From the NCBI GenBank assembly GCA_965364395.1, contig CBDTXE010000003.1, forward strand, positions 1 to 34,441: 34,441 nt of DNA, in the 5' to 3' direction. Shown in pieces: positions 670 through 26,782 of the stretch. The position numbers were made by a program, and so were the translations under genes. The notes under the pieces were generated by a model that did no database searches, was not told the origin of the DNA, and saw only the letters and a program-made list of their open reading frames with translations. Source of the stretch: an uncultured bacterium. Its GTDB lineage: Bacteria; Patescibacteriota; Saccharimonadia; UBA4664; SCTI01. Positions within the stretch are counted from its first letter, which is position 1; each line of letters opens with the position of its first letter.

Positions 670-2391
670 TTGTGGTTGCAGTGGTGTCACCCCGTGATTG
701 AAGGCGGGGAAGTCCAAGACGTCGATTCATTTCGGGCGTCTGTTTCGCAGCGCCTAGTGGATTTGGAAGCGACAATCAATTCGCGCGGCGGCTCCGACCA
801 AATAGTTGCAGATGAGGTCAGGAAGCTGCGCCAAGCAGTAGCCGCATGGGTGCCACCCAGGGCTTCAAGTGAAGGAAACTCGGACCGATGGCAGTCTATT
901 CTTGAATCCGTAGTTTCAAATGCACCGCATTATATTCAGGTGCTTGATACCGAGTTATGCTACACCTACGTCAACCGAATCGCTCCTAATGTCAACCTTG
1001 TGGACTTCCTGGGCAAGCCGTATGGGCGGACTTTCAATCGCGATGAGCGCAAGCGGATTTACGCATTGCTGCGCCACACATTGAAATCCGGCGAAATAAC
1101 TGAGTATAAAGTAATGTCCACTTACGATGGAGCCAAGCATTGGTATAAAACTACGGCGGGTCCGATTCGCGAATTTGGAGAAATTACCGGTGTCATTCTG
1201 ATCACATTTGATATCACCACGGAGAAGTTGGCGCAGCAAGTGCTGGAACAGGAGAAGGTGGCGGCCGAGTCGGCGCGCCTGCGCGACCGCGCGCTGCTAA
1301 ACAGTATTGGTGAAGGACTGCTGGTAATTGATGAAGCCGGCCGGATCGCCAACATTAATCCTTCCGGTGCGGCGATGCTGGGTTATAGGAGAAAAGAGCT
1401 GATTGGCAAATGGTTTAATGCCGCGGTGGAGGCGCTTGATGAGCGTGGATTGTTGATAGACCCCTTGGAGCGGCCGGTGATGCGGGCTCTGACCAGTGGT
1501 AAGTCCGTGGCCGAGCATGCCTGGTACGTCCGTAAAGACGGGACCCGTTTTCCAGTATCACTGACCATCTCGCCGGTTGTCCATAACGGCAAGCCTATCG
1601 GCGCCATTGAGGTGTTTCGAGACACAACCGAGGAGCGCGAGCTTGATAATGCCAAAGAGGAGTTCGTTTCCTTGGCGTCGCACCAGCTGCGGACGCCGGC
1701 TACCGGGGTAAAGGCCTTTGTCTCAATGATGCTCGACGGCTACGGTGGATCATTAAGTGATGAGCAGCAGGAGTTTTTACAGAAGGTATACGATTCCAAT
1801 GAACGCCAACTGCAGGTCGTAAATGACATGCTGAACGTTGCCAGGGTGGACGCGGGGCGGATAGTCCCGGAAATGACCAGTACGGTAGTAAATCCAATTA
1901 TTTACGACGTGGTGGAGGAACAAAAAGCCACCATCAGGCAGCGGCGGCAAGAATTGGCAATTGAATTGCCTAATAGCCCAATTGAGGCGGTCCTTGATGG
2001 CAAGCTCCTGCGCATGGTAATGGAAAATTTGCTCAGCAATGCTTCAAAATACACCCCCGTGGGCGGCAACATTCGGGTGCGCATGGAGGCATTAAAAGGT
2101 ATGCTGCAAATCACCGTGTCCGATACAGGCGTAGGGATTGCCAAGTCCGATGTTTCCAAGCTGTTCCAGCGGTTTTCCAGGATTCCGAACCAATTTAGTG
2201 CGGCGCGCGGGGGCACTGGCCTTGGGCTGTACTTGGCAAACAACATCGTCAGGTTGCATGACGGGGAAATGGCGGTGGACTCAGAAGTAGGGAAAGGAAC
2301 CGAGTTTACGGTTACTATCCCCTTGAAGCCGCGCCCACGGCAGGTGCGTGCCGTCCACAGAGCCAAAGAAACGCCGGGAGGTAAAAAATGA
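670..2391 (+). CDS. Soluble PAS-PAS sensor histidine kinase (HisKA + HATPase_c); start codon uncertain (TTG 670 or GTG 694)
   Basis: Two PAS/PAC segments, H-box EFVSLASHQLRTPAT, N-box ENLLSNASKYT, G1 DTGVGI, G2 GGTGLGL. No hydrophobic TM stretch. Confidence 0.93.
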   Translation: MWLQWCHPVIEGGEVQDVDSFRASVSQRLVDLEATINSRGGSDQIVADEVRKLRQAVAAWVPPRASSEGNSDRWQSILESVVSNAPHYIQVLDTELCYTYVNRIAPNVNLVDFLGKPYGRTFNRDERKRIYALLRHTLKSGEITEYKVMSTYDGAKHWYKTTAGPIREFGEITGVILITFDITTEKLAQQVLEQEKVAAESARLRDRALLNSIGEGLLVIDEAGRIANINPSGAAMLGYRRKELIGKWFNAAVEALDERGLLIDPLERPVMRALTSGKSVAEHAWYVRKDGTRFPVSLTISPVVHNGKPIGAIEVFRDTTEERELDNAKEEFVSLASHQLRTPATGVKAFVSMMLDGYGGSLSDEQQEFLQKVYDSNERQLQVVNDMLNVARVDAGRIVPEMTSTVVNPIIYDVVEEQKATIRQRRQELAIELPNSPIEAVLDGKLLRMVMENLLSNASKYTPVGGNIRVRMEALKGMLQITVSDTGVGIAKSDVSKLFQRFSRIPNQFSAARGGTGLGLYLANNIVRLHDGEMAVDSEVGKGTEFTVTIPLKPRPRQVRAVHRAKETPGGKK

Positions 2392-14395: not shown

Positions 14396-15715
14396 CTACT
14401 GACCTTCGTACCGGTGCGCGGGCGTTCGGCTAACCACATTGTCACGAAGCCAGTCAAATGCTGGTTTGCGAGTGTCTAGGTATCCGTTGACGGTTAGCCC
14501 CTGGTCCCAGCCGGTGTAGTCGCGGTAGTGGTGCCACGACCATCCGGTAACGGGAAGTGCTTTCAAGATTGGATCATTCTCCATGGCCGCAATCTTATTC
14601 TGGTAGGCAGCCAGCTGCCCCGACGTTCCCGCGCCGTCTTCACTGAACCATATTTCTTTAGCGTGGGCGCCGGTTGTACCGTCAAGGGCATCTATCCTCG
14701 CCACAATTTCCTTGACCCGGTTGAAGCACCAGCGGTCGGTTTGCGAGCAATTGGTACCACCATAAGGATGGATTGATAGCGCGTCGTAGTAGCCGCCGGA
14801 CGTGTAAAAATCAGCGGTACCCGGTACCCCTCCACCGCCCTGGGCCATGTCACGAATCCAATTGCCAGTCCCTTGGCCGCCTATGGCCGCGTCAAAGTAA
14901 GTGAGGTCAAACGACACCCCGATCTTCACCTTTTTGCCCCAGTCCGCTGCTTTGGTTTGGGTGTAGGCACTTTTGACAAGTGCGGCATATTTGGGCGCGG
15001 CGGCCAGTCCCATGTTGGCGCCGCCCATGTTTGAGCCGTAGGGTTCGTTGATCCATTCTATCCAGTCCACTTCTAGATTCCGCCCTGCGTAGGCCGCTCC
15101 CGGCTGTCCCGCCTGCCAGAATGTGCCGCCCCGGCCATAGCGTTCAACCATGCTTTTTGTGGAGGCTACTAATGATGCCGGCGAGTCATTGACCGTGCCG
15201 CCTAGTATTGGGAATACTTTGGCGCCCCGTTGCGATGCCTGGAGGAAGCTGGCGTCGGTGAGGTTGCGGTCTTCACGCATGTGCTTCATATTCATGCCCT
15301 TGGCGCCCTCGTAGGTGTTAGAGGTCAGGCCGCGATTGTAGTAATCGGTGGAATTGTATCCAAAGAAGTTGCCTGTCCAGCTCCATCGTATTTTGTCGCG
15401 CGAGAATCCGGTAGGCGGGACAGTATTGCGTCCAAAGTTGGATAGCAGGATACTCAGGTCAGTAATATCGACAGAGCCATTGCCGTTGATATCGGCGCTT
15501 CCGGGCTTGCTGAATTGTGACAGGAGGATGCTTAAATCAGTGATATCTACGCGGTTATCAGCGTTTACATCGCCGGGGAGTGTGGCAGCTTGGCTTTGGC
15601 CGACTGAGGGGAATAGTAAAAGTGAAACGCAGGCGGCGACGATGAGAATAGCAACCAACGCCGCCAGTTTGTAGCGTCGGTTTATGAAAGCATTACGTTT
15701 ATCGCTGCGGGACAT
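14396..15715 (-). CDS. Secreted/anchored protein with a dockerin domain and a clan GH-A glycoside hydrolase domain
   Basis: Signal/TM segment, duplicated GDVNADNRVDITDLSILL / ADINGNGSVDITDLSILL, acid-base motif WINEP, DALSIHPY, nucleophile motif IWFSEDG. Confidence 0.85.
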   Translation of the reverse strand: MSRSDKRNAFINRRYKLAALVAILIVAACVSLLLFPSVGQSQAATLPGDVNADNRVDITDLSILLSQFSKPGSADINGNGSVDITDLSILLSNFGRNTVPPTGFSRDKIRWSWTGNFFGYNSTDYYNRGLTSNTYEGAKGMNMKHMREDRNLTDASFLQASQRGAKVFPILGGTVNDSPASLVASTKSMVERYGRGGTFWQAGQPGAAYAGRNLEVDWIEWINEPYGSNMGGANMGLAAAPKYAALVKSAYTQTKAADWGKKVKIGVSFDLTYFDAAIGGQGTGNWIRDMAQGGGGVPGTADFYTSGGYYDALSIHPYGGTNCSQTDRWCFNRVKEIVARIDALDGTTGAHAKEIWFSEDGAGTSGQLAAYQNKIAAMENDPILKALPVTGWSWHHYRDYTGWDQGLTVNGYLDTRKPAFDWLRDNVVSRTPAHRYEGQ

Positions 15716-17603: not shown

Positions 17604-18674
17604 CTATCCACCTTTACGATAGTTTTTATCTCGCACAACATGGTTAATGTGCTTCTGTAAATTTTTATCACTTTGTTTACGTTCAAATGCCAAATTGTCA
17701 TTAGCTTTTGCGTTTAAGAAGCGTAGTTCTTTTTGAAATTTGTGATATGAATCAAGCCTGCTTTTATCTAATGTCCCGGATTTTGTCGCATTCAACACCG
17801 CACAATTGGGCTCTCCGGTATGTGTGCAATCATTGAACTTGCAAGATCGAGACAACGCTTCAACATCACCAAATACTCCTGCGAGATCATCTTCCGTTCC
17901 CCAGAGTTGCAATTCCCGCAAGCCAGGGGTATCAATTACAAGCCCGCCACCGGGCAAGATGAACAGTTCCCTGTGGGTGGTCGTATGCCTTCCTTTGGAA
18001 TCAGCTTCGCGGATCGTCTGTGTTGTCTGCCTGTCCACCCCGAGCAGGGCGTTTATGATAGTGGACTTACCGACGCCTGATGAACCCAAGAATATCGCCG
18101 TGCTGCCGGGTTGGATGGCATCGGCGATGTCGTCAATGCCATCCCCCAGCGCAGCACTTGTAACAATAATCCTTGCGTTTAATGCATTTAGCTTACGTAC
18201 CTTTACTGCAATATCAATTGCTTCATCAGATTTATTTAGGACAAGAATCGGCTCAACGCCTTCACTGTGCAGCTGGAATAAATACCGCTGTAGACGCTCA
18301 GGGCTAAAGTCATCGTCCAGGGCTTGTACTAAAAATGCCATGTCAACATTTGCGGCCAACACCTGTTTTGCGAACTGTTCGCCCGGTAGCTTGCGCCCTA
18401 TTTCGCTCTTGCGCGGGAGAACCGCGTGTATGATTGCGCGCTGCTGGCCAAGCGGTTGGACTGCGACCCAGTCGCCGACCTTTGGCATCTCATGCGGCTT
18501 TGATAAGTACTCTAAGCGCCCCGATACTTCAGCGGTCAATTCTTCTGGCACAGCAATCTTATAGCTTGCACCATAATCCGCGATGACACGGCCAGGTGTG
18601 AAACGCGACAAGCCCGCTTCATCCCAAGACTGCTTCAGGGTATCGTTCCAGCCTAGTTTAATTAGCGATTTCAT
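17604..18674 (-). CDS. rsgA: Ribosome small subunit-dependent GTPase A (long form)
   Basis: VGDWV, LNKSD, GSSGVGKSTIIN, GRHTTTHREL, DTPGLRE, zinc site CKFNDCTHTGEPNC. Confidence 0.95.
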   Translation of the reverse strand: MKSLIKLGWNDTLKQSWDEAGLSRFTPGRVIADYGASYKIAVPEELTAEVSGRLEYLSKPHEMPKVGDWVAVQPLGQQRAIIHAVLPRKSEIGRKLPGEQFAKQVLAANVDMAFLVQALDDDFSPERLQRYLFQLHSEGVEPILVLNKSDEAIDIAVKVRKLNALNARIIVTSAALGDGIDDIADAIQPGSTAIFLGSSGVGKSTIINALLGVDRQTTQTIREADSKGRHTTTHRELFILPGGGLVIDTPGLRELQLWGTEDDLAGVFGDVEALSRSCKFNDCTHTGEPNCAVLNATKSGTLDKSRLDSYHKFQKELRFLNAKANDNLAFERKQSDKNLQKHINHVVRDKNYRKGG

Positions 18675-18984: not shown

Positions 18985-19013
18985 TTGACTACATAAGCGT
19001 TATAAGGTATAAT
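18985..19013 (+). promoter_or_regulatory. Near-consensus sigma70 promoter for the 19071 gene
   Basis: TTGACT-17 nt-TATAAT. Confidence 0.75.
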
Positions 19014-19070
19014 ATGCATATTCAAGCGTAAGCTTGTACCCCTTGAAATCTAATCTGACCGGGAGGTCAT

Positions 19071-19775
19071 GTGTCTAGCGAGTATCGGCTCAAGCCGGGG
19101 TCGGCCAAGGCCGACCGAAATATCGCCCGCGTGACCATGGGCATGGCGCCCAGCGTGGTCTTAGAGCATGGCTCGGACTGCGCCGAGCTGCTGAAGGACG
19201 TGCCGCTGCCGCCGCATGTACGGCTGGAGGGATTCTTCGACTACTACTCCCTCCGCCACGCCGACCTGAAGCCTTCGCTGCATCTGGCGCTGAGCATTCG
19301 CATGCTGGACGAGGTCGTCGACTACGCCTGGCATCGTGGACGGGCAAACCCAGGCCAGCAGTGCAAGGCCCGCGGCGATGTACATGAGCAGATTCAAAGC
19401 AGCTGCCGCGACTACGGCACCGCCGCGCCGCTGGTCTGCCGCGCGGTAGCCCAGGCTTACCGACATGATTCGGGTGACCCCGAGGTCCGCAAGTTCTGGC
19501 GCGGCGTCGGCCGGGTCTACGCCAAGGTTCTCGCCGTGGCGCTCCGCGAGCTGGCCCTCATCCAGAAGCTCGAGACCATCGAACTGGCCGGCCCGGCCGT
19601 CATGGGCTGCATCGGCTTTGCCGAGACGATGTTCTCCACAGACCTGCCGTTGCTTGGTCTCCTGGAAGGGCTGGACACCGAGCAACCGCTCGGGCACCTA
19701 CGGGTCGTGGGCTTCAGCCAGCAGGGCGCCTGGAAGCAAGTGGGCGACGCCCACCAAGCCGCCAAGGCCTTCTGA
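19071..19775 (+). CDS. Stand-alone large domain of a glucokinase-fold protein; truncated paralog of 19918..21015
   Basis: Colinear matches to the next gene (LKPG/LKLG, LPPH/LPPR, EVVDY/NVVDF, YGTAAPLVCRAV/HGSVAPLMTRAV). Has a GGGAGG SD, its own promoter and a terminator. Confidence 0.75.
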   Translation: MSSEYRLKPGSAKADRNIARVTMGMAPSVVLEHGSDCAELLKDVPLPPHVRLEGFFDYYSLRHADLKPSLHLALSIRMLDEVVDYAWHRGRANPGQQCKARGDVHEQIQSSCRDYGTAAPLVCRAVAQAYRHDSGDPEVRKFWRGVGRVYAKVLAVALRELALIQKLETIELAGPAVMGCIGFAETMFSTDLPLLGLLEGLDTEQPLGHLRVVGFSQQGAWKQVGDAHQAAKAF

Positions 19776-19786
19776 TCTCAAGGGAA

Positions 19787-19813
19787 GGGGCGCGACGCAA
19801 GACGTCGCGCCCC
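19787..19813. terminator. GC-rich hairpin between the two kinase-fold genes
   Basis: GGGGCGCGACG-CAAGA-CGTCGCGCCCC, a perfect 11-bp stem. Confidence 0.7.
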
Positions 19814-19917
19814 AAACCGCAATAATTGATTTGTAAGTAGATTAGTACATAATATCGCCAGAGGGTCCGGCATGGTCGGGCCTTTGCTTTATACAACCTG
19901 CTACAAGGGAGGCCGGC

Positions 19918-21015
19918 GTGCCGAGTGGTACTCTGAAGCACCAGGTGGTAACGGGTATGACGGGCGCCATTGACATTGGCGCCACCAAGATTCTTGGCGT
20001 TGCCCAGTATTCCGGCCGGAATCCGTCAACGTGGCGGGCGGCTACGGCTGACTTTCAATCTTTCCGCTCTGTGATCACCGCCTACGTTCTGGCCTGCGGC
20101 GGTGACGTCCCCGAGGCGCTAGTGGTGGATGTGGCCGGCCACCGCGAAGGCAACATCTACCGGCTGACTAACGCCGACTGGCCCAGCTTCCGCGTGGATG
20201 ACATTGAGGCCGAGTTTGGCTGCCAACTGGAGATCTATAACGACCTGCAGCTGGCGGTCATCGGGCTGACGCATGCCAACCTCGACCGGTTGCCGGTCCT
20301 CAAGCTGGGGCTGATGCCGGCGTCCGCTGCGCAGGTTGGCGTGGCCACGGATTCCACCGGCGTCAACGACGGCGTAGGTATGGGGTCCGGGGCGGCGCTG
20401 CCGCTGGCGCGCGAGTCCGGCTGGATGATGCCCGGACTGCCGCCGCGCACCGAGTTGTCCGAGTTGCTGGCATTTGTGGACCGCAGCTGCATGCGGGAGC
20501 TGCACCGGCGAGCCGGGTGGGAAGACCTGCTGGGCGGCAAGGTTGGCGTGGAAAACGTCGTGGACTTTTGTATGGAAGGCCGGGTTGACTCCGTCACCAC
20601 GTCCCCCGCGCTCAAGGCTTTTGTGGCGGACTACCGCCGCCAACACGGATCGGTGGCGCCGTTGATGACGCGGGCGGTCATGGGGCTGGAGGCCCAGCGG
20701 GCAGTCAGGGGACAAGTGCTTCGCCTGATGGCCGCCTGCTCTGACCTGCATTCCGCGGTGCTGGGCTGGTATCTCAAGAGCTGTATCGAGGGCAACCAGC
20801 TGTCCGAACTGGCCGTGCAGGGCAGTGTCCTGGCAGGCACTCCCGGGTATGCCCAGCACGTCGCCCGTCCCGGAGGGCCATTCATGCAGGCGCTGATGGC
20901 GCCTAGCCGCAAGGTCTCCGTGACGGAGCACTGCCGCATCCTGCTGGTTCCCAACTCGGTCAACTTGGCCGTCATCGGCGGACTGGCCATGGCTCGCGGG
21001 ATGGCAAGGTTGTAA
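19918..21015 (+). CDS. Diverged glucokinase (Glk/ASKHA) family sugar kinase
   Basis: AIDIGATK (phosphate-1 loop), VAG, LTNADW, IYNDLQ (catalytic Asp), STG, ESGW (normally ExGH), WEDLLGG. GGGAGG SD. Confidence 0.8.
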   Translation: MPSGTLKHQVVTGMTGAIDIGATKILGVAQYSGRNPSTWRAATADFQSFRSVITAYVLACGGDVPEALVVDVAGHREGNIYRLTNADWPSFRVDDIEAEFGCQLEIYNDLQLAVIGLTHANLDRLPVLKLGLMPASAAQVGVATDSTGVNDGVGMGSGAALPLARESGWMMPGLPPRTELSELLAFVDRSCMRELHRRAGWEDLLGGKVGVENVVDFCMEGRVDSVTTSPALKAFVADYRRQHGSVAPLMTRAVMGLEAQRAVRGQVLRLMAACSDLHSAVLGWYLKSCIEGNQLSELAVQGSVLAGTPGYAQHVARPGGPFMQALMAPSRKVSVTEHCRILLVPNSVNLAVIGGLAMARGMARL

Positions 21016-21023
21016 GAAGAGAG

Positions 21024-21050
21024 GCGCCCCGGCCGTTATGGCCGGGGCGT
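21024..21050. terminator. Hairpin between convergent genes
   Basis: CGCCCCGGCC-GTTAT-GGCCGGGGCG. Confidence 0.7.
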
Positions 21051-21061
21051 AATTGCGTCTG

Positions 21062-22159
21062 CTAACCGCAGGCGATAGCGGAGTTGCTGTAGTGGGGGGT
21101 GTCGGTAACCTCGCGGTCGACTTCCAGGAAAGGCGGCAATGACAGGTTGTCGGCGGGGTCGTCCAGCTCGAGTTCCAGCAGCCAGCAGGCGCGCGCAGCG
21201 GGTTCCATGACCTCGTCCAGCTCGTAATACCGGTTGGCGTCCACAAAGTAGTGCCGGCGTTTGACTACAGCTTGGCGGCCGTTGTCGCGGCACGCCATGA
21301 GGCGCTGGTACTGCTCCAACGTGATCGTTACTTCTTCCTCGGCCCGAACCAGGCCGCTACCCTGTTTGCGCGTCCAGGTGTACCAGGTTCTGTTACCCGA
21401 TGTCAGGCGGCGGATGCGCGACTGGCCACTAGAGGAGTCGTAAAGGTACGTCTGCCGGATGTCGGCGCAGCGGGATTTGGTTAGCGGGGGCAGGGAAAAG
21501 TCCGGCGGCCGGCGTAGCAGGAACCGCCGCTCAACTTCCGTGCCGGACATAAGCGCACTAAGCGCGCGGACGGCAGCGGCCTCCTTGTCGGCAAATATGC
21601 GGGTCGCGGGGATGATGCGCAATTTTGGATGGCCGACGCGGCAGTCCAGCAGCAGCTGGTCCAAATCCCGTGCGCCGGCGGCGTCCTCGCGCCGCGCCGG
21701 ATTGTTGCCGGTGGTGTATGAGCCATTGAAGGCGGCGCTGCGGAAGTGCAGAACCGCGTCTGACTGGTGCCGCAGATCTTCCTCGCGCCAGCCGTTCTGC
21801 CGCAGAAACTGCTGGAATTCGTCGGGAGGCAGGTAGGCCTGGCATTCTATGGGGCCCCGGTCCGCCAGAATGACCCAGTCATATTCAGGCATGAGCTTGG
21901 CCTGATGGACGGCCGCGTCTAGCACGCTGAACCACACCCGGTGCCAGACCGACTGGACGCCGATACGCCGCTGCGGGTTGCTGCCAGCCACCATGGCGCC
22001 GTAGTCAATGCCGGCCTCGTGCCATAGGGTGGCCATTTCTGGGAGCGCTATGACGCGGCGCGTGTCAGGCATTAGCGCGGCAGCCATCGCCTCCACGGCG
22101 CTGGTTTTTCCCGATCCCGGGCCACCCGTCAGCTCCACAACCATAATTTGCCCAGACAA
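21062..22159 (-). CDS. P-loop NMP-kinase-like (AAA_28-type) domain fused to a CYTH domain
   Basis: ELTGGPGSGKTS, ADRG, NNPARRED, then the CYTH signature EVERRFLL, QTYL, RIRR, KRRH, LELE. SD AGGAGGAG. Confidence 0.88.
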   Translation of the reverse strand: MSGQIMVVELTGGPGSGKTSAVEAMAAALMPDTRRVIALPEMATLWHEAGIDYGAMVAGSNPQRRIGVQSVWHRVWFSVLDAAVHQAKLMPEYDWVILADRGPIECQAYLPPDEFQQFLRQNGWREEDLRHQSDAVLHFRSAAFNGSYTTGNNPARREDAAGARDLDQLLLDCRVGHPKLRIIPATRIFADKEAAAVRALSALMSGTEVERRFLLRRPPDFSLPPLTKSRCADIRQTYLYDSSSGQSRIRRLTSGNRTWYTWTRKQGSGLVRAEEEVTITLEQYQRLMACRDNGRQAVVKRRHYFVDANRYYELDEVMEPAARACWLLELELDDPADNLSLPPFLEVDREVTDTPHYSNSAIACG

Positions 22160-24735: not shown

Positions 24736-25164
24736 TCAGTCCAACACCTCATAGCGTCGGTTTGATGTGTCGCCCGTAATCCTGGCGTCTCCGGTCTCGC
24801 GTTCGCTGGACAGCCGCCAGTAGGCGGCATCTTCAGCCGATACCTCGTCAGGGGCGCGGACTTGCATGGTGCGCGTTCGAGTGTCGATGACTTTGACATG
24901 GAATTCGCGAGAGCGGACTTGGCGCTGGAGTGTGGCGTTCATTTTGTCGCCAGGAGCGAGGATGAACGTGTCCTCAACACCTTCAGGGCGCAAACCCTCG
25001 CGGTTGATGTTCTTCATGTCGTTCTTGCGGACACGGGTGCGAAACTCCAGTTTGCCGCCTTCGAGTTCGGTTCGACCGACGACTTCCGATTGCTCGAAGG
25101 GGTGGGTGTTGGGCAGGCAGACGTGGTCGCCAACCTGAACCGTCGCTGCTGCGTACCAACCCAT
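24736..25164 (-). CDS. Hypothetical beta-rich protein (142 aa)
   Basis: GGAGG SD before ATG 25164 (MGWYAAATVQVGDHV). GC3-rich codons. Confidence 0.7.
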   Translation of the reverse strand: MGWYAAATVQVGDHVCLPNTHPFEQSEVVGRTELEGGKLEFRTRVRKNDMKNINREGLRPEGVEDTFILAPGDKMNATLQRQVRSREFHVKVIDTRTRTMQVRAPDEVSAEDAAYWRLSSERETGDARITGDTSNRRYEVLD

Positions 25165-25330
25165 TGGCTTCCTCCGGTATTGCGGGGAGCGGGGACAGCA
25201 CTGTTTTAGCATTTGATTGTCCCAAAAGCAAATCCTTGCCTGGCCCAATTGATTTAAAAAATATGAAGTTGTATACATCTAAAAGTGCGCTTACGCGTAC
25301 GGTACCTGTTCATCAAGGTCAGGAGAGGCC

Positions 25331-25468
25331 TTGCGCATCAAAGAAATAGCCCTAGGGGTGGAGGCAGCGCTGTCTCTGAGCGGGCCCTACAAGAAGCGGC
25401 GCGAGGCCAGGGCCGCCCAGGTGCCAGTGCGGCCACCTCTGAAGCCCGGCAAGCGGAAGCCCTGCTGA
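25331..25468 (+). CDS. Small basic 45-aa ORF (MRIKEIALGVEAALSLSGPYKKRREARAAQVPVRPPLKPGKRKPC), absent from the ORF track
   Basis: AGGAG SD 5 nt before TTG. Stop TGA lies 1 nt before the ATG at 25470. Confidence 0.5.
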   Translation: MRIKEIALGVEAALSLSGPYKKRREARAAQVPVRPPLKPGKRKPC

Positions 25469-25469
25469 C

Positions 25470-26189
25470 ATGCGGCAACATCTTCTTTGCACGGTACTTG
25501 CCGCCGTCATTGGGTTGTTGGGCTGCGCAGCCAATGCGCATGCCTTTCCCGCCGATGCCCCCAACCATCGCCTGTTGCAGGAGCCGCCCGACCCGCATGT
25601 GCGGGATGAACAAGGCGACTTTGACGGCAAGCTGTCGTATCCGCAGATTCGGCAAGTGGGCCGCAAGACGCTCTACGTGTGGGGCAAGCAGCAGGAAGGT
25701 ACGCTGACCGTCTACGGGCCGTCGTTCCTGCGCTCGGTCCATGCGCGCCTCATGGGGGCGTTCCCCGGGAACATCTTCATCATCAAGTACGAGGCATCGG
25801 ACGTGACCGGTTCGCCGGGATATCGCATTGGTGCGCCCGGCCACCCCGACAGGTACCGGGTGGACAAGACCCGCGGATACGTGGACGGGTTCGTGGTCTG
25901 GAAGATCGAATCGATCATCGACCGTGTGGCACATCCAGGCCTGTTCCACTACCTGACGTGCGAAACCACGGTGGACGTATGGACGCAGCGGGAGGGGACA
26001 CCCGAGGAATCAATGTGGCACATCATCTACGACAAGGTTCGCCCCATCCGGGCACCAGTCTTCCGTAAGCCTCGTTGCCGACTGGAGCGCTCCGACCACA
26101 TCAAGGCGGTGACGCGCCGCCGGGTGAACCGCGGCGCAACATTGTCGGCGCTGAAGGCGTACGCCGAAGCCATTTCCAAGCACCCCTGA
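25470..26189 (+). CDS. Hypothetical secreted protein
   Basis: Signal peptide MRQHLLCTVLAAVIGLLGCAANAHA. GC3-rich codons. Followed by a hairpin. Confidence 0.75.
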   Translation: MRQHLLCTVLAAVIGLLGCAANAHAFPADAPNHRLLQEPPDPHVRDEQGDFDGKLSYPQIRQVGRKTLYVWGKQQEGTLTVYGPSFLRSVHARLMGAFPGNIFIIKYEASDVTGSPGYRIGAPGHPDRYRVDKTRGYVDGFVVWKIESIIDRVAHPGLFHYLTCETTVDVWTQREGTPEESMWHIIYDKVRPIRAPVFRKPRCRLERSDHIKAVTRRRVNRGATLSALKAYAEAISKHP

Positions 26190-26195
26190 GAGGGC

Positions 26196-26221
26196 GGCGG
26201 CCCAGGATTTTCTGGGCCGCC
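26196..26221. terminator. GC hairpin (GGCGGCCCAG...CTGGGCCGCC)
   Basis: 10-bp stem after the stop; nearly identical to the stem at 26807-26835. Confidence 0.65.
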
Positions 26222-26326
26222 AAGCGGTCTTTATTTAGCAGATTGTTTCATTGTCATGGCGGTGATATAACCGCACAAGCGGGCACGGCCCGTTTCATAC
26301 AAGTACCCGACTCCCAAGGAGGAGCC

Positions 26327-26782
26327 GTGTTTAAGGTCCTAGCGGCAGCTAGTCTCTGGGCTGCGTTAGCGGTGCCCAGTCCAGTGGCCGCCCAGCAGCC
26401 GCCGTCGCCTACCGGTCGCGCGCCGGAGATTGGCGCGTTGGCTGCCGGCAAACTCAAGCTCCGGGCGGAGGAAAAGCGCGCCCAGTCCGCGGCCAAGCGG
26501 TTTTGCAGGACCGTCAAGCCTCCATTTAGGCATTGCGATATGCGCCGGGCAGAAGCCCAGGAGCGGACCCGGCTTGGTTCCGAGAGCTATCGCTGGTCGC
26601 TGGTCATCACCGGCACTTGGCTGTGCGAGTCACAATGCTTGCGGAAGCTGCCCTTCTGGAAGACGGACTGGTTTGGCTTTGCGGATTTCCGGGTCTGGAT
26701 TAACAGCAAGGGCAAACGGAGATCCAAAACGAGCAATCGGAAGTGCTACCCGCCGGGAGTGTTTCCGCCGCAGACCTGCTGA
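26327..26782 (+). CDS. Hypothetical secreted, basic, Cys-rich protein (151 aa)
   Basis: AGGAGGAG SD before GTG 26327. Signal peptide MFKVLAAASLWAALAVPSPVAA. Six Cys in the mature part. Confidence 0.7.
   Translation: MFKVLAAASLWAALAVPSPVAAQQPPSPTGRAPEIGALAAGKLKLRAEEKRAQSAAKRFCRTVKPPFRHCDMRRAEAQERTRLGSESYRWSLVITGTWLCESQCLRKLPFWKTDWFGFADFRVWINSKGKRRSKTSNRKCYPPGVFPPQTC

Follow-up and report, generated by a model that had tools for sequence, protein, structure and literature searches.

A large-domain-only, catalytically dead glucokinase derivative encoded beside a full-length glucokinase-family protein in a member of the Patescibacteria

Dead paralogs that act as partners are already known in the ASKHA superfamily (e.g., TsaB and TbHK2). 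TsaB (YeaZ) is a truncated ASKHA paralog that keeps the dimer-interface lobe and binds its full-length catalytic paralog TsaD (PMC9654439), and TbHK2 of Trypanosoma brucei (PMC3195984) is a hexokinase paralog that is inactive alone in vitro and forms mixed oligomers with TbHK1. The group II ATP-dependent glucokinase of Escherichia coli (Glk; PDB 1q18/1sz2; PF02685) is described in PMC13133996 as having a small domain (residues 2-110 and 300-321) and a large domain (residues 111-299), with glucose contacts at Asn99, Asp100, His160 and Glu187 and with dimer contacts on the large domain (alpha4, alpha7, beta10 and the beta10-beta11 loop). A literature search of titles and abstract openings, mostly outside the subscription literature, revealed no description of a large-domain-only glucokinase. 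The sugar-kinase fold has also been reused without kinase activity in the regulators Mlc, Lmo0178 and MecR2, to which a DNA-binding domain has been added.

The window analyzed here, a stretch of 34,441 nucleotides representing contig C3 of a 1.25 Mb genome, belongs to the Patescibacteria, bacteria with small genomes whose regulation is little understood. Two plus-strand open reading frames with GTG starts, both recognized at the same positions in an earlier sequence-only reading of the window, form the subject of this study. The first, termed S (19071-19775, 234 aa), is characterized by sequence, fold model and coding pattern as a large-domain-only, catalytically dead glucokinase derivative, and the second, termed L (19918-21015, 365 aa), is identified by Pfam and by a residue map to E. 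coli Glk as a full-length glucokinase-family (PF02685) protein. Compared with the group II glucokinases, L is alike in Pfam score and motifs and differs by a Trp at the position of His160, whereas S lacks the small domain and its model matches residues 112-318 only. The proposed S/L pair resembles TsaB/TsaD in that, judging from the matched domain range, a truncated paralog retains the lobe that would carry the dimer interface. Unlike TsaB, which is the N-terminal lobe, S keeps the C-terminal lobe, and its binding is only proposed. TbHK2 is a full-length protein that shares 98% identity with TbHK1 and gains activity in the mixed oligomers (PMC3195984), whereas S is half a protein, at 22% identity, and lacks the catalytic residues. 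The ROK-fold regulators keep both kinase lobes, whereas S has one lobe and no added domain and belongs to the PF02685 branch.

The full-length neighbor L passes the Pfam Glucokinase model (E 2.8e-8; 33.6 bits against a cut-off of 22.1) and keeps D19-x-G-A-T (D19, G21, A22, T23), N85, N108-D109, E166 and E202, having equivalents of E. coli D9, G11, T13, N76, N99, D100, G138, E157 and E187. Trp169 occupies the position of His160, where full-length family members have Trp in 3 of 14 cases and His in 11 of 14, and the scores of L against the NCBIfam glucokinase equivalogs (15-21 bits) are far below the cut-offs (225-468). Because of this Trp and these low scores, glucose is unproven as the substrate of L. 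Judging from its residues, L probably has sugar-kinase activity, additional to that of a separate ROK kinase in the same genome, and may work as a dimer. Upstream of L lies a weaker promoter candidate (TTGATT-16-CATAAT, 19826-19853, plus strand; 9/12 matches, a strength that arises in shuffled sequence too), followed by a Shine-Dalgarno sequence (GGGAGG, 19907-19912, plus strand) 5 nt before the GTG. The two genes are flanked by tRNA-Phe and by a convergent AAA_28 gene, and a hairpin between L and the latter (21025-21049) has a pyrimidine-rich tail on the minus strand only. The S/L stretch is 62-66% GC, compared with about 55% in the surroundings.

The direct resemblance between S and L (BLASTP 25.4 bits, E 0.001, 22% identity across 144 columns) is marginal when taken alone, since the local score was reached by 8 of 5000 shuffles. 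A PF02685 search of 61 genomes found a full-length protein in genome G006, which belongs to the same family as the host, with matches to L (4.7e-33) and to S (1.3e-6); the local score between S and this relative is 107, compared with 32.5 +/- 4.7 for shuffles, and was reached by 0 of 1000. A family profile built from 11 full-length relatives, from which both S and L were left out, gives S a score of 27.2 bits (E 9e-11; the top of 3000 shuffles was 7.1), and hhalign of S residues 5-216 against the family gives a probability of 96 (E 3.5e-9). Because third sequences and profiles score S, with the direct S/L match being marginal, the homology of S to glucokinase is confirmed: S is remotely homologous to the large domain of its neighbor L, a Pfam-Glucokinase protein, as had been claimed from the sequence, and the deep divergence of the two proteins claimed at the same time holds as well. 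S is 28% identical to the G006 kinase versus 22% to L, and its best-kept parts are the helical core and a G-x-V-x-G-x-x-G-F-A segment.

An accidental similarity of a protein not derived from glucokinase would agree with the lack of any significant Pfam or NCBIfam match to S, with a best PDB sequence match to cytochrome P450cam (E 3.5e-5), and with a fold model whose alignment was made of Glk relatives, which renders the fold match partly circular. The profiles lacking S and L and the hhalign result speak against it, however, as do a model that is confident across the helical core (pTM 0.75) and top fold matches that are glucokinases; given the G006 match, the profile and hhalign, accidental similarity is taken as already refuted at the level of sequence and carries next to no probability. 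The P450cam match is considered a chance hit, P450 being absent among the fold matches listed and both profile and fold favoring Glk. The Pfam ROK profile gives no match to S, and no N-terminal part has been added before the large domain.

Close relatives of S are scarce in the databases. A word-based protein search with S returned S alone, and one with L returned L alone (both are singletons at 90% identity); S stands alone both in a set of 5.8 billion proteins and among representatives at 50% identity. Another word-based protein search yielded 6 proteins and a 14-row alignment, and an ESM Atlas search with S returned unnamed clusters (0.87-0.90) and a ROK cluster (0.83), which are treated as leads only. 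When 1.84 billion protein representatives (50% identity) were searched with a large-domain alignment of S, L and the G006 protein, 19 were returned, comprising the 3 queries, 12 proteins of full length and 4 unusual proteins (P0012, P0017, P0019 and P0020). P0012 (221 aa, no Met, on a 979-bp contig) is probably an edge fragment and was excluded from the count of short forms.

The AlphaFold model of S (14-row alignment) has a mean pLDDT of 73.5 and a pTM of 0.75, and residues 1-234 align to E. coli Glk 112-318 (Z 13.3, rmsd 3.5, 196 aligned). Glucokinases rank top in a fold search with this model, and the ROK-fold regulators Mlc, Lmo0178 and MecR2 are among the matches; the fold match is partly circular because the alignment behind the model was drawn from the glucokinase family. 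The start of S lies ~12-13 residues past the position of the Asn-Asp motif, as the sequence-only reading had placed it, and corresponds to E. coli Glk residue 112; since this meets the published start of the large domain (residue 111), S starts at the domain border. An in-frame stop stands four codons 5' of the start and no small-domain remnant is present, which bears out the reported loss of the ATP loop and the catalytic Asp. S is without the ATP loop (phosphate-1 loop), Asn76 and Asn99-Asp100, and it cannot be a kinase by itself because the small domain, the ATP loop and the Asn-Asp motif are missing. The statement that S encodes the large domain only stands for the range 112-318 but needs amending at the end of the protein, where S retains the last C-terminal helix, which in E. 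coli Glk counts as small domain. No signal peptide or further domain is evident in the S sequence.

Within the retained lobe, the position of Glu187 is taken by His71, followed by S75-I-R-M, and the S-G-x-G glycines are lost. The region of Glu157-x-Gly-His160 has rival alignment registers at a pLDDT of about 60, one of which keeps an equivalent of His160 (His49 in HVRL) with Asp43 at Glu157. The matching blocks listed in the earlier reading are colinear in the global alignment, but one of them, PLPPHVRL, has a rival register against the family GHVRL. Residues 31-50 (pLDDT 58-61; two strands, versus three in the second short form described below) are the least certain part of the core, and these weak strands probably correspond to the dimer-contact beta10-beta11 of E. 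coli Glk. Taken as a whole, the model suggests that a large-domain range including the dimer-interface lobe matches that of E. coli Glk. The register with His49 and Asp43, together with the His found at the Glu187 position in both short forms, beside the phosphate pocket of E. coli Glk (PMC13133996), would suit a sugar- or phosphosugar-binding sensor that retains half of the substrate pocket. Such a role is nevertheless improbable, since Asn99 and Asp100 are gone and Glu187 is replaced (which affects three of the four residues that PMC13133996 names as glucose contacts), the cleft cannot close without the small domain, and the register around His160 is ambiguous. S closing on a sugar is unlikely.

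S is preceded by candidate expression signals that agree with those described from the sequence. A sigma-70-type promoter candidate (TTGACT-17-TATAAT, 18985-19013, plus strand) matches the consensus at 11 of 12 positions, and TTGACN-16/18-TATAAT sites number 13 in the whole genome. The Shine-Dalgarno sequence GGGAGG (19061-19066) sits 4 nt 5' of the GTG and is spanned by a 5-bp mini-hairpin (19056-19069, plus strand), of which the loop and 3' arm consist of GGAGG and which shows paired changes between genomes (L046, L084, L032, L043, L057 and S). Stems of at least 4 bp over GGAGG occur in 6 of 15 Glk-like genes, which as kin are not independent, compared with 6 of 138 Shine-Dalgarno-bearing genes of this genome. 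CsrA was considered as a reason for the hairpin and set aside, no CsrA having been found in this genome. An out-of-frame ATG overlaps the GTG of S (19069-19071), 2 nt past the Shine-Dalgarno sequence, and opens a frame of ~21 codons. The terminator ascribed to S did not hold up: the element 3' of the gene is an 11-bp GC hairpin (19787-19813, plus strand; z -5.1 versus 200 shuffles) without a U-tract, was not called by the plus-strand terminator scan, and is likely a 3' end or stability element. The stretch at 19776-19815 and those 3' of L084, L088, L032, L029, L083, L085 and L087 mostly contain CAAG, purines, a GC-rich hairpin and a pyrimidine-rich stretch, again without a U-tract, and this arrangement may represent a kind of terminator used by this lineage; few such sites were found in this genome. 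A genome-wide cassette repeat is unsupported (18 matches versus 6-11 in shuffles, 5 of them after a gene).

The frame and codon pattern of S look maintained. GC at codon positions 1/2/3 is 0.72/0.44/0.83, the codon score is close to the genome median, the gap between GC3 and GC2 (0.39) was reached by 0 of 5000 shuffles, and the frame stays open in 86 of 20000 base shuffles. Identical four-fold sites number 20 of 43 between S and L (0.35 expected) and 14 of 35 between S and the G006 gene (0.32 expected), which is near saturation, and the S branch, at 5-6 changes per site, is the longest in the family, compared with about 0.6-1.6 for most relatives. Codon-position identities of S are no better than in a codon-shuffled control and so provide no direct measure of purifying selection; selection is suggested by the frame remaining open and colinear after so much change. 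These features bear on the reading of S as a relic, i.e., a truncated duplicate that is still expressed or has so far escaped deletion, has no specific function and is only weakly selected for remaining folded and harmless. The isolation of S among known proteins, its long branch, the result of the codon-position test, the existence of a damaged form in the family (P0019) and the 67 neighboring tandem paralog pairs in the host genome are all in its favor. We nonetheless regard a relic as rather unlikely, given 212 colinear residues free of stop or frameshift despite near-saturated silent sites, a codon score near the median with a GC3 of 0.83, a promoter near consensus, and two forms whose starts coincide, or nearly so, with one and the same domain border.

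The second of these forms was found in genome G038, of the same order as the host and of another family, by a profile lacking it (E 7e-9). It is a closed 244-aa open reading frame (L046; G038:C37 1408-2142, minus strand) that matches the large domain only, with its own GGAGG and 3' hairpin, a His at the Glu187 position as in S, and a model with the fold of a sugar-kinase lobe (pLDDT 78.5); it has no detectable similarity to S. The full-length kinase of the same genome (L084; G038:C17 8956-10023, plus strand) is on another contig; both genes lie <=340 bp from contig ends in an order that permits linkage, and the ends of the two contigs do not overlap. The short and full-length proteins share 22% identity, and the four-fold sites of the two genes have reached saturation (11 of 31 identical, 0.34 expected). 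The flanks of the two genes, however, align over ~90 nt on the 5' side (score 42) and 105 nt on the 3' side (score 105), compared with 34 and 39 for the best of 1034 control flanks, and exact matches to the flank pattern in G038 are confined to these two loci. Because the flanks match while silent sites are saturated, the shared expression signals have outlasted the divergence of the sequences. We infer that the G038 short form arose, independently of S, as a duplicate of the resident kinase gene that lost its small-domain codons behind a retained start. With this second form in addition to the frame, the profile and the model, the proposal that S is a maintained, dead, large-domain-only derivative is supported.

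Trees do not place S: AU tests reject neither a grouping with the G038 short form (p 0.58) nor one with L (p 0.63), and one quick tree sets S beside the other clade with weak support (rows L009, L016 and E. coli Glk were left out of one family tree, and two more rows were left out of the S + L test tree). The separate origin of S and the G038 form therefore rests on flanks and on profile scores, which on the two clades are 27.2 versus 2.2 bits for S and 32.5 versus 44.2 bits for the G038 form. No common sequence was found in the flanks of S and L. A 5' likeness of S to the G006 gene is unspecific, since scores of this height are also obtained with 15 of 1034 native upstream regions, and for this reason an internal deletion is not established for S.

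Across the order, a strong full-length match is present in only 6 of 53 genomes, and short forms occur in 2 of the 53, corresponding to 2 of the 6 with a strong full-length match, although very diverged ones could escape. Both genomes with a large-domain-only form thus also contain a full-length kinase. In these respects the S-type forms are unlike TsaB, being neither constant with the kinase nor recognizably similar to each other. More short forms may be missed, because the search of representatives missed the G038 form present in the collection. Samples of the class (401 genomes) and of the phylum (401 each) gave no further large-domain-only match, other matches covering the small-domain region only, and viral contigs gave no match. 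An adjacent pair of short and full-length genes was absent from 16 loci around other Glk-like genes, several of them cut by contig ends; with S also lacking close relatives, the idea of a two-gene module conserved as an adjacent pair was not upheld.

Glucokinase derivatives without catalytic function are thus found repeatedly in this lineage. G031 and G012, two genomes belonging to a single genus, encode motif-dead full-length Glk-like proteins (L043, G031 1381-2346, minus strand; L057, G012 1087-2073, plus strand) that, together with P0029, form a conserved family of 321-328 aa and a candidate pseudo-kinase family of its own. P0017 (298 aa) is another motif-dead form without catalytic motifs, and P0019 (193 aa) is a damaged form in which the small domain runs straight into the final part of the large domain, with an altered tail. 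A PF02685-type kinase was not found in G012 or G031, and since the motif-dead forms persist there regardless, dead Glk folds in this order need no kinase partner. This observation, along with P0017, is in line with S being a repurposed, partner-independent binder that uses the Glk large domain as a scaffold (as a homodimer, or for another protein of its own or of a host), its place beside L recording only its birth by duplication. The promoter candidate and hairpin that S has for itself, the lack of relationship between its flanks and those of L, and the preferential retention of the helical core and the glycine-containing segment also fit such a role. We consider it possible but doubtful, because both large-domain-only forms are in genomes with a full-length kinase, the G038 form retains the flanks of its kinase, and S has no evident signal peptide or other domain and no neighborhood suggesting another partner.

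Both short forms are likely to be non-catalytic binding proteins, and the kinase may be what they act on. The explanation tentatively preferred, although held at well under even confidence, is that S is a duplicate-derived, non-catalytic binding subunit of L. By analogy with the known dead partners, an old duplicate of an L-like kinase would have become S through loss of the small domain, S would be expressed as an intact large-domain protein that docks on L through the large-domain dimer surface, and by taking the place of a catalytic subunit it would damp or tune L. S as a partner of L is favored by the cut at the domain border, the co-occurrence with a kinase and the shared flanks in G038, although co-occurrence also follows from duplication alone. 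The same reading is weakened because S is closer to the G006 kinase than to L and shares no flanks with L, because the interface strands are the least ordered in the S core, and because dead forms exist without a detectable kinase. More broadly, and as a doubtful generalization, the order may repeatedly make half-kinases from accessory glucokinase-like duplicates, cut at the domain border and placed under own or shared signals; these would regulate the parent enzyme through its dimer surface or serve as decoys for a sugar kinase of the host.

A dead half-kinase has apparently arisen twice, each time in a genome that also has the full enzyme, which, if true, would mean regulators built from enzyme fragments and an undescribed, convergently evolved means by which epibiotic bacteria control the entry step of sugar use. 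S and L would constitute a two-protein system that is testable in E. coli without culturing the host. Should S have no effect on L, it would still be an example of a glucokinase lobe that persists as a protein by itself, which is of modest interest.

Several other features of the window were observed. The convergent gene beyond L (21062-22159, minus strand) has a high GC3 and its own Shine-Dalgarno sequence like S and L; its product, of 365 aa, carries an AAA_28 P-loop domain at the N-terminus and has a C-terminal half that we take to be CYTH-like. In a 439-aa protein encoded at 14396-15715 (minus strand), the N-terminus is signal-like and a dockerin type I domain is followed by a region that presumably resembles a glycoside hydrolase. 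Behind tRNA-Cys and tRNA-Leu, three open reading frames at 24736-26782 (180, 239 and 235 aa) have no Pfam match, and codon use is coding-like in the first two and not in the third. An RsgA-type GTPase gene (17604-18674, minus strand) in a low-GC stretch beside tRNA-Gly has a GC3 of 0.49, compared with a genome mean of 0.69, and was probably acquired recently.
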